Below are positions 57,001-60,000 of a stretch of 64,000 nt of DNA, in pieces. The stretch is from positions 1 through 64,000 of the forward strand of contig JAYZBV010000037.1 of the NCBI GenBank assembly GCA_036338595.1, read 5' to 3'. A program made the position numbers. Source of the DNA: Planctomycetota bacterium (GTDB lineage Bacteria; Planctomycetota; UBA8108; UBA1146). Positions within the stretch are counted from its first letter, which is position 1. Each line of letters starts with the position of its first letter.

Positions 57001-60000
57001 TGGTACGAGGAGTGAGGTATCTGGCCAGCAGCTCGGGTGTCAGACGATGGCCGTCCCTGCAGTCGGTGGGTACCTTTACCGGAACCCCTTCAGCAAGAGT
57101 GATCAGTTCCGGATACGAGACCCAGTATGGCACCGCCAACATCACTTCGTCACCTGGATCCACCAGCGAGAGCAAGCACTGGGAGAGGGACTGTTTTGCT
57201 CCCGATGAGATCACGACCATCGAAGGATCGACTTCGACCCCACGAGTTCGTGTGACATGACGGCAGATCGCTTCTCGCGCCTCGATGTGGCCCGCCGCAG
57301 CAGTGTATCGAGTCCAACCTGCATCCATCCCTGCCTTCGCTGCATCGCGGATGAATTGCGGTGTCGGGAAATCAGGTTCCCCCACGCTGAGGTTGAGAAT
57401 CTCCTGCCCATCTCGGATGAGGTCCTGCAACCTGGCGTTGAGGGTCAGGGTCGCTGACGGTTGAATGGTACGGACGCGCTGGCTGATCATTTGAACTCCG
57501 ATTTCTCTCGATCCGATGAGATCGATGCGATGAGAGTGCGGATACTATCGCCAAGCATCGTGACTTGCGAGGCACGGAAGCCATTCAATGGCGCTTTCGA
57601 CGCCATCTCGCCACCATCCTGAAAGTTGCAGCGGTCAGCAGTGTGGCTATGATGGAGGAGAATGGCGCTCGCTAGATCGTCGAAAATTGTGGATTTGGCC
57701 CGTATTGGCGTCAAGGTACACGCAAGTGCCCGAATTGAACGAGGTCCCCGATGCACCAGAAGATCGCCTTGCCCATGTTGTTGACGCTACTGCTGTCAGG
57801 ATCCGTATTTCTGACGCCCTCCGCCGCACAGGCTCAGATGCTCTTTACCCGTGGCGATTGCAACATCGATGGGGTGATCAACATCGCAGATGCGGTGCTG
57901 GGACTGGGTATCCTGTTTTCCGGAGCTGGCCCTGCCGATTGCGCCGATGCCTGTGATGTCAACGACGATGGCCAAAACGACATCAGCGACCCCATCTTCA
58001 TGCTCGGCAACCTCTTCTCCAGTGGCCCGAACCCGCCACCACCCGATGACTGCGGTGCCGATCCCAGCCCGGATAGCCTCGATTGCCTGACCGGCCCCAG
58101 CACCTGTCCACCACCGGTGGAGGATTGCAGCAATGGTGTCGACGATGACGGAGATACATTGATCGACTGCGCTGATCCCGATTGTGATACCGATCCGATC
58201 TGCGCACCCCCACTCTCCTTCGATCTGGATATTTATCAGATCATCATCGATGAGTGCACCTTCTGTCACGGCCCCCCGTCCAATTTCGCCGACCTGGATC
58301 TATCCACCACCGCTGGAAATGATCCCTACGCACGAATCGTCAACACGCCCTCGGACGAATGCGATTCCTATGATCTTGTCGAACCGGGTGACTCCCAGGC
58401 CAGCTGGCTATACCGGAAGATCAGCGGCACTCATGTCGAGGCAGCGACATCTGCAGGCTGTTTAGCGATGGATGCAGGAGACCAGATGCCACTGGGGCCC
58501 TTCTGTTGCCTGGAGACGACACAGATCGAACTGATCCAGCAGTGGATCGATGAAGGAGCCAATCCCTGATGCACTCTCGGGGACGATGTGAAGTGTCGAA
58601 TCGGGTGCTGATCTTGACTTCTGGTCACCGAGGCCTACACTCCCGTTTTCCGTTCTGAGCCGAGGTGGCGGAACTGGCAGACGCGCCAGGTTAAGGACCT
58701 GGTGGGCATTAGCCCATGGGGGTTCGAGTCCCCCCCTCGGCATTTGACTTCCCCTGCACTCTCATCTGCTTCATCACTACCTTCCGTCTCCATCCGTCTC
58801 CATCCGTCTCTTTCCGTCTCCTGGCGATGCCTGATTCACGACAAAAAAACAGGGAGACGGGGCACTGCCCCATCTCCCCATTTTGTTGGCCCCGACCCGA
58901 TCCGAACCAGTGAGCTCTTGCCCCCCGGATCGACCCTGGTCAGTCCCGGGTACTTCTTCCCTCGCCTCACCAATACTCGTACTTGGGACGAGTTCTCGGT
59001 GAAGACTCGGAACGCACCGCGCGGGTGCGCCAGGGTCGATGCTGACCGGAAGGCTTGGCTACTTTTTTTTGCGCCGCTTGGCCTTCTTCTTGGCCTTGCG
59101 CTTGGCTGGCTTCTTCTTGGCCTTGCGCTTGGCCTTCTTCTTGGCCTTCTTCTTGGCTGGCTTCTTCTTTGCCTTGCGCTTGGCCTTCTTCTTCGTGGCC
59201 TTCTTCTTCGTCTTGCGCTTGGCCTTCTTCTTGGTCTTGCGCTTGGCCTTCTTCTTCGCAGCCTTCTTCTTGGTCTTGCGCTTGGCCTTCTTCTTCGCAG
59301 CCTTCTTCTTGGTCTTGCGCTTGGCCTTCTTCTTCGCCTTCTTCTTCGCCTTGCGCTTCGCGGGCTTCCGCTTCGCGGCCTTCTTCTTCGTCTTGCGCTT
59401 CGCGGTTTTCCGCTTCGCGGTTTTCCGCTTAGCGGTCTTCCGTTTCGCCTTCTTCTTCGCCGCCTTCTTCTTGGCCATGCCAACTCCTATCGGGGTCTAT
59501 GCCCCAAAGACCTGATGCTCACGCCCCCCTCCGAGGGGACGACCGATAGAAGCTGAGGTGCAACCGTTGCACCCTGCCTCCACCGGAAAGAACTCGTGGA
59601 AAGTATGTGTGGGGAACTTCTCTTCATGCAAGCCACGTCCAGCGCGCCTGAAGAGGTGGGTCGATGACTCGACCTGGCGGGAACTCCCGACACGGATCCG
59701 CTTTCAGATCCGTGGCCAGGTCCCTGCTGATCATCCATCGATTCGCCGACACGGGCAGATGCCGTGTTCACGGAACCGACTTGCTTGTAGAGAGTGGGTT
59801 GGACCAACCCGTCCCCCAGTGTCGCCCTGCCCGGAGAGGAGAGTGCGTCGTGACGACGCGAGCGCATTCCCCTTCACCACGATGGAGTACGAGAGGTCCT
59901 ACGAAAGATCATCACTTTCCCGACCGATGTGACTCGCAAACTCCAGCGCAGTGGAAAGCACCTCCCGTTCCCCTCGGGTGATCGGTGCTCCCCGTCAACG

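Follow-up and report, generated by a model that had tools for sequence, protein, structure and literature searches.

How are the leucine codons CUU and CUC read in a planctomycete that has a gene for tRNA-Leu(AAG), and in whose genome the expected tRNA-Leu(GAG) was not found? The question is raised by a locus in the window, by which we mean the whole stretch of 64,000 nucleotides that was analyzed (contig JAYZBV010000037.1 of assembly GCA_036338595.1). The Leu tRNAs called by ARAGORN in this genome have the anticodons CAA, UAA, UAG, CAG, and AAG. The absence of tRNA-Leu(GAG), part of the survey's finding that led to the present analysis, was seen both with ARAGORN at its default threshold and with an nhmmer profile of 53 GAG tRNAs, which returned only the five known Leu genes at E<0.01 from this 88% complete bin. 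The bin is also 7.2% contaminated, and ARAGORN calls neither tRNA-Trp nor tRNA-Ile(GAU) in it. Since the bin is incomplete and other tRNAs are missing, the absence of tRNA-Leu(GAG) rests on the relatives: the GAG pattern matched in 0 of the 23 genomes of the clade formed by genera g1, g6, and g7, which includes this genome. As discussed below, the best reading is that the deaminase TadA edits A34 to inosine, because the anticodon loop fits a known TadA consensus (YUAMGRA) and CUC outnumbers CUU 3:1. We consider it likely that TadA carries out this conversion and that the resulting tRNA-Leu(IAG) reads both CUC and CUU.

The gene for tRNA-Leu(AAG) and its origin

The tRNA-Leu(AAG) gene is real and well conserved [Table 1]. 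Sequence, ARAGORN, and Rfam agree with the survey on its position and identity as an intact class II tRNA-Leu with anticodon AAG, and the score against RF00005 is 53.9 bits (cut-off 29). The anticodon arm reads CCAGG-UUAAGGA-CCUGG, the discriminator base is A73, and the 3′ CCA is absent from the gene; three PF01743 nucleotidyltransferase genes and trmD are present in the genome. In the g1 and g6 relatives, the tRNA sequence is the same or one change apart. The promoter search gave one promoter where 0.1 was expected in shuffles, and the TTGAC...TA(A/C)ACT motif is conserved in 19/19 AAG loci examined of the three genera. The hairpin that follows the tRNA gene is a putative terminator. Free MFE folding did not recover the cloverleaf of tRNA-Leu(AAG), and folding was left unused. 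ARAGORN also called a tRNA-Sec(UCA) on another contig of the genome.

Table 1. Features at the tRNA-Leu(AAG) locus (window positions) and the tadA gene (on contig C65)
Feature	Position	Strand	Basis and remarks
tRNA-Leu(AAG), class II, long variable arm	58659..58742	+	ARAGORN; Rfam RF00005, full length
Anticodon loop U32 U33 A34 A35 G36 G37 A38	58691..58697	+	Sequence; A34 = 58693
Sigma70-like promoter TTGACT-16-TACACT	58614..58641	+	17 nt upstream of tRNA-Leu(AAG)
Terminator-like hairpin	58846..58884	-	18 pairs, T-run on minus strand; between tRNA and converging Lys/Arg-rich gene
PLP-dependent (aspartate-type) aminotransferase gene	56327..57490	-	NCBIfam NF041091, E 3e-105, under its cut-off; synteny marker
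Acidic double-disulfide repeat protein gene	57751..58569	+	NF033662, above cut-off; product probably secreted
Lys/Arg/Ala-rich histone-like ORF	59059..59478	-	139 aa; no NCBIfam match
tadA	C65:63924-64415		163 aa; directly downstream of tRNA-Arg(ACG)

In a survey of 59 genomes of the class, a pattern search found AAG in 22 of the 23 genomes of the three genera (g1, 9/9; g6, 5/6; g7, 8/8), and the GAG count of 0/23 is the one given earlier. The remaining 36 class genomes have AAG in none and GAG in 21 by the same pattern. In genus g24, four further GAG genes were recovered in the 5 of its 10 genomes that were checked by similarity, which brings GAG to at least 25 of the 36. The g24 gene, with its variant T loop, had escaped the class pattern, and absences by pattern are therefore lower bounds. 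Of the earlier statement that 32 of the 36 other class genomes carry GAG, the prevalence of GAG stands, while the full count of 32 was not reproduced.

In a ribosomal-operon tree of 60 genomes, g1, g6, and g7 form one clade (support 1.0), whose sister genera, from the same family, have GAG. In 9/9 GAG genomes examined of the order, tRNA-Leu(GAG) adjoins the same aminotransferase gene and neighboring gene as the tRNA of the window, and the divergent orientation matches in the five GAG loci from the other families of the order. Moreover, the body of tRNA-Leu(AAG) agrees with order-level GAG tRNAs at 69-77 of 84 positions, compared with 63-69 for UAG and 64-71 for CAG. Because GAG tRNAs occupy the same locus and the tRNA body matches GAG best, these data support the conversion in place of a resident tRNA-Leu(GAG), and the claim that AAG replaced GAG is upheld by both synteny and tRNA body identity. 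As a separate observation, the NF033662 gene lies between the aminotransferase and tRNA genes in 6/6 AAG-clade loci and 0/9 GAG loci examined; it seems to have been gained on the same branch as the AAG switch.

The ancestral GAG loop reads UUGAGGG, the g1/g6 form UUAAGGA, and the g7 form CUAAGGA with A31:U39. The AAG loops end in GA, and A38 occurs in 0/53 of the GAG tRNAs collected as loci, in keeping with the proposal that G38>A accompanied G34>A. Likewise, the loop has become similar to that of tRNA-Arg(ACG), as had been claimed: UUAAGGA differs from CUACGGA at positions 32 and 35 only, and the g7 arm is close to the whole tRNA-Arg(ACG) arm (CCUGA-CUACGGA-UCAGG). The resident GAG gene thus underwent G34>A and G38>A in place on the stem branch of the three genera, leaving no GAG copy, and g7 then gained C32 and the A31:U39 pair.

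Recurrence in Planctomycetota and other phyla

The phylum survey covered 401 genomes at least 85% complete. A pattern for AAG or GAG matched in 335 of these (343 matches, 150 of them listed), and AAG was found in 37: 14 of this family and 23 outside it, in families f11 (8/14), f30 (5/19), and f57 (10/17). For each AAG genome, the AAG-or-GAG count equals the AAG count; therefore, none of the AAG genomes of the phylum has a GAG match. With position 38 left free in the pattern, 40/40 AAG matches read YUAAGGA, in line with the earlier report that the phylum pattern is always TAAGGA. ARAGORN agrees for 34/34 loci submitted; these include 16 of the 26 outside-family matches, all called AAG, so that hits which the survey had not passed through a tRNA finder now have such a call. 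The survey placed the recurrence in five other families; the recurrence holds, but the 401 genomes give three other families, and at least one more comes from named Pirellulaceae records. Parsimony requires five changes (either four gains with a single reversal, or a larger number of gains), and at least four separate AAG gains in Planctomycetota are thus indicated by the distribution.

One pair is of particular value in this context. Genomes G411 (AAG; locus L394) and G187 (GAG; L393) belong to the same genus, and their tRNAs differ at four positions, one D-loop base and 32, 34, and 38. GAG genomes nest within the AAG group around this pair, which suggests either a reversal or repeated gains. 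Extra AAG tRNAs that differ from the genome's own copy were seen on two tiny contigs, L090 (G348:C23, 678 bp) and L091 (G218:C228, 591 bp); the matched stretch of L090 is the same as that of an f30 tRNA, and both extra copies are probably bin contamination.

A wider scan, over GTDB species genomes, gave at least 120 loci, and 119/120 of those listed are AAG by ARAGORN. The scan pattern fixed positions 37 and 38 and is therefore uninformative on these; pair 31:39 was left free, and it is A:U in 110/120 listed AAG arms. By title, the 120 listed loci come from Bacillota (62), Verrucomicrobiota (25), Actinomycetota (11), Planctomycetota (7), myxobacteria and "delta" groups (7), and four other groups (7). 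Of the 120 listed, 58 are not titled Bacillota and 57 are named in other phyla, although the listed genomes are mostly bins, in which single hits may represent contamination. Cultured bacteria outside Firmicutes are among the carriers: Luteolibacter marinus, Rubritalea spongiae, and Akkermansia. Among 30 genomes tested from this listing, a GAG match was found in none and TadA in 28. The presentation of this gene as a rare case outside Firmicutes was therefore overstated, also in view of the Prochlorococcus and Mycoplasma genes in PMC13249217. The kind of tRNA is known, its occurrence in this lineage is new, and tRNAs of this kind occur more widely than the literature consulted states.

In Verrucomicrobiota (the phylum of Luteolibacter), AAG occurs in 30/151 genomes and never with GAG. 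The same exclusion holds in Sumerlaeota, where AAG is found in 30/69 genomes, AAG and GAG stand at 30:30 among the 60 typed, and 30/30 AAG matches have A38. A38 is not universal among AAG tRNAs: 6/30 verrucomicrobial AAG loops read UUAAGGG, with G38, in genomes without a GAG match (G497, G518, G557, G599, G602, and G611; loci L398-L412). The five UUAAGGG genomes examined have an intact-looking TadA and the Arg loop CUACGAA, from which UUAAGGG differs at four positions, and CUC makes up 40-64% of their CUY codons. In this group, A34 may naturally stay unedited, or TadA may be very relaxed. Because these genomes still use CUC freely, a poor fit to TadA may be tolerated.

TadA, the probable editing of A34, and the alternatives

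The tadA product keeps the HAE and PCxxC motifs, its best PDB matches are solved TadA structures (E 1.6e-37 to 2b3j), and its NCBIfam score of 142.5 bits falls short of the curated cut-off (150). TadA was found in 15/15 clade genomes looked at. The genome has both a tadA with intact zinc motifs and a tRNA-Arg(ACG) with the loop CUACGGA, as had been reported. In the tadA locus (L001, G000:C65:63601-64525), the gene stands after its substrate tRNA-Arg(ACG) and before two tRNA-Ser genes; in the class and in f11, most loci likewise have tRNA-Arg(ACG) no more than 1.5 kb from tadA.

The loop UUAAGGA fits the consensus YUAMGRA of the dual-substrate TadA described in PMC11472039, in which S. pyogenes tRNA-Leu(AAG) is fully edited by TadA. 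The Streptococcus Leu(AAG) arms collected here as loci have the loop CUAAGGA. Since UUAAGGA also resembles the Arg(ACG) loop, TadA most likely accepts tRNA-Leu(AAG). The housekeeping TadA would then take tRNA-Leu(AAG) as a second substrate and convert A34 to inosine, and tRNA-Leu(IAG) would serve as the ordinary CUC- and CUU-reading Leu tRNA of the lineage. We infer from the sequence data that tRNA-Leu(AAG) is expressed, charged, edited, and used in decoding. A conceivable driver would be that I34 pays when GC falls, given that G34 is slow on CUU; an in vitro test with one tRNA body put this slowdown at about tenfold (PMC13249217). Other observations speak against editing. The combination of U32 with G31:C39 is rare (1/120 listed AAG arms), E. 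coli TadA does not edit streptococcal Leu(AAG) (PMC11472039), and A37G abolished the weak editing of an AAG loop by E. coli TadA (PMC11066159). The E. coli results imply that an Arg-like loop is insufficient for every TadA.

In this context, the TadA of the clade has a feature that is a new observation here. The motif DSRWG is present in 15/15 clade TadA and in 0/12 GAG genomes of the class, which have DPK(A/G)G (12/12); K121 is also fixed in the clade. By alignment with 2b3j, and allowing for an inferred three-residue numbering offset, DSRWG corresponds to the D104-P105-K106-G107 region: the D104 and N123 equivalents are kept, while P105-K106-G107 has become S-R-W. In S. aureus TadA, D104 binds the ribose of U33, K106 and N123 contact the C32-A38 pair, and K106 is conserved in all TadA examined in that study (PMC3711424). 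These contacts give the G38>A change a reason, and DSRWG thus lies at the place where the enzyme would sense a U32-A38 substrate.

Such a change does not qualify as a universal AAG signature, as DPK(A/F)G is retained in 14/14 AAG genomes of f11, f30, and f57 and is also what their GAG sisters have. Convergence with the NPRWG of Sumerlaeia was likewise rejected: among 21 of the 60 typed genomes, R-W occurs in 4/11 AAG and 2/10 GAG genomes, and W alone in 8/11 and 2/10, respectively. The 104-107 loop of Sumerlaeota TadA is unusually variable, and D104 is mostly N or S. Because the other AAG families lack DSRWG, R-W occurs in GAG Sumerlaeota, and the stem branch is long, the link between DSRWG and AAG amounts to one coincidence on one branch, and the change may be drift rather than adaptation. 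The TadA tree used is a quick one; in it, the TadA of named Planctomycetota records groups with f11, and this grouping, together with the survey's own assignment, is the basis for the phylum name. G37 in tRNA-Arg(ACG) was also considered as a precondition for the switch. All planctomycete AAG genomes with an Arg match have CUACGGA; however, nearly all GAG sisters have it too, and A37 occurs in AAG streptococci, lactococci, and Rubritalea, and the idea was dropped.

Could A34 instead remain largely unmodified or only partly edited, with CUC read by A:C wobble (superwobbling), perhaps with the help of tRNA-Leu(UAG)? Bacterial tRNAs with unedited A34 exist, namely the Thr and Ser tRNAs of O. oeni (PMC8072771) and an Arg tRNA of Mollicutes (PMC3711424). 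The verrucomicrobial UUAAGGG tRNAs, discussed above, combine a loop far from that of their own tRNA-Arg(ACG) with free use of CUC, and the DSRW change alters the K106 that is otherwise conserved in the TadA of PMC3711424, which could weaken the enzyme. Superwobbling, however, gives no cause for the A38 seen in every planctomycete and Sumerlaeota match (40/40 and 30/30). Moreover, an unedited AAG tRNA with G37 favored CUU 87:13 in E. coli and thus reads CUC poorly (PMC11066159), while CUC is three times as frequent as CUU here. We therefore regard superwobbling as an unlikely, though not negligible, explanation.

A different origin of the gene, in which a horizontally transferred copy or a derivative of the UAG isoacceptor displaced GAG, could account for AAG arms that are alike across distant phyla, A31:U39 being the rule in the listed arms (110/120), and some Leu(UAG) arms also have A31:U39 and GA at 37-38. 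The GAG locus shared in 9/9 genomes and the tRNA body, closer to GAG than to UAG or CAG, largely refute this origin, and the g1/g6 form retains the ancestral G31:C39 and U32; it is thus very improbable for this lineage, whereas transfer of the anticodon arm only may have occurred in g7 or in the other families. Even less credence, close to none, can be given to an assembly error or pseudogene combined with loss of GAG from the bin. The state of the bin, incomplete, contaminated, and short of several tRNAs, would allow it, but 22 separate species-level genomes carry AAG, the promoter is conserved, and GAG is found in 0/23 genomes of the clade.

Editing of A34 by TadA after conversion of the GAG gene in place therefore remains the preferred reading, and it can be joined with the wider distribution. 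In this joint reading, tRNA-Leu(IAG) would be recurrent and reversible across bacteria (gained four or more times in Planctomycetota, and present in about one-fifth of the Verrucomicrobiota sampled and in half of the Sumerlaeota that were informative) and not an oddity of lactic acid bacteria. The route would lead from a GAG arm to an Arg-like YUAAGGA arm, and in the present clade the change of the TadA 32-38 loop to D-S-R-W on the same branch would have made a U32/G31:C39 arm editable after minimal change. Taken as a whole, this reading is tentative, and we would not bet on all of its parts holding together. If it is true, the sister pairs would show how a homodimeric TadA acquires a second substrate.

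Known systems, RNA data, and codon use

Editing of tRNA-Leu(AAG) is proven for O. oeni (as cited in PMC8072771), S. pyogenes (PMC11472039), and S. mutans (PMC13249217, which also covers the S. pneumoniae enzyme). As in Lactobacillales, an A34 Leu tRNA with the loop YUAAGGA replaces GAG here, UAG and CAG are kept, and tadA and tRNA-Arg(ACG) are present. In contrast to Lactobacillales, the planctomycete tRNA belongs to another phylum, has an independent origin from a local GAG gene, and is known from genes alone; the genome has 58% GC, uses CUC more than CUU, and gives no clear sign of codon recoding. Position 37 of the Arg loop is G here and A in the streptococci and lactococci checked, and the TadA loop is DSRWG here and N(Q/P)KFG in Lactobacillales; the enzyme of 163 residues has no long C-terminal extension. 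The tRNA-Leu(AAG) of Prochlorococcus and Mycoplasma (PMC13249217) has the same anticodon outside Firmicutes and is likewise known from genes only. Relative to the tRNA-Arg(ACG)/TadA systems of E. coli and S. aureus (2b3j), the enzyme family and active-site motifs are the same, and a second putative substrate is added here.

In the literature, PMC8007984 mentions the gene for Leuconostocaceae and "some Firmicutes". According to PMC13249217 (2026), almost all tRNA-Leu(IAG) genes are in Bacilli, and that study asks if the phenomenon extends further; its main text does not name Planctomycetota, Verrucomicrobiota, or Akkermansia, which its supplement may list. Our literature search found no paper naming Planctomycetota for tRNA-Leu(AAG), while planctomycetes or Verrucomicrobia may appear in the surveys of Rafels-Ybern. 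PMC11472039 (2024) left open by what adaptation TadA came to serve a second substrate. The present lineage offers a natural experiment in this respect: one orthologous gene has the anticodon GAG in the sister genera but AAG in this clade, TadA changed along that same branch, and G411/G187 supply a pair from within one genus. If editing holds, TadA might act on mRNA as well in these marine bacteria, at UAAG sites as in S. pyogenes.

A run search gave six RNA runs (word shares at most 0.07), and assembled contigs of four of them were compared with the window. The tRNA bin is barely covered (depth 0.5-0.6 in two runs), with no difference listed at A34, which weighs neither for nor against editing, and contig cover falls almost wholly on the Lys/Arg-rich neighbor. 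Two marine RNA runs contain contigs for that ORF, about 260 nt long and with 0-2 differences; the other cover is low-complexity cross-mapping.

Over 1972 crudely defined ORFs, the counts are CUU 8407, CUC 26213, CUA 2607, and CUG 34755, so that CUC is 36.4% of CUN codons, which matches the 36% given before, and CUC:CUU is about 3:1. Codon recoding of the kind described in PMC13249217 was examined in ribosomal-operon genes of 60 genomes with six control boxes. The raw ratio of CUU to CUC is shifted up in AAG genomes in 3/4 lineages, with p values that overstate the case as the genomes are kin. The clade has a lower GC3 (0.64 vs 0.79), and after GC3 correction the overall shift is +0.19 +/- 0.12, which is not significant and no larger than in some control boxes; recoding of that kind is not supported. 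The CUY share of Leu codons is also lower in the clade (0.43 vs 0.55). In f57 (L343-L356), CUU is strongly preferred over CUC in the ribosomal-operon genes, with log odds of about +1.5 over the control boxes, and since GAG and AAG genomes both have this bias, it is older than the tRNA switch in that family.
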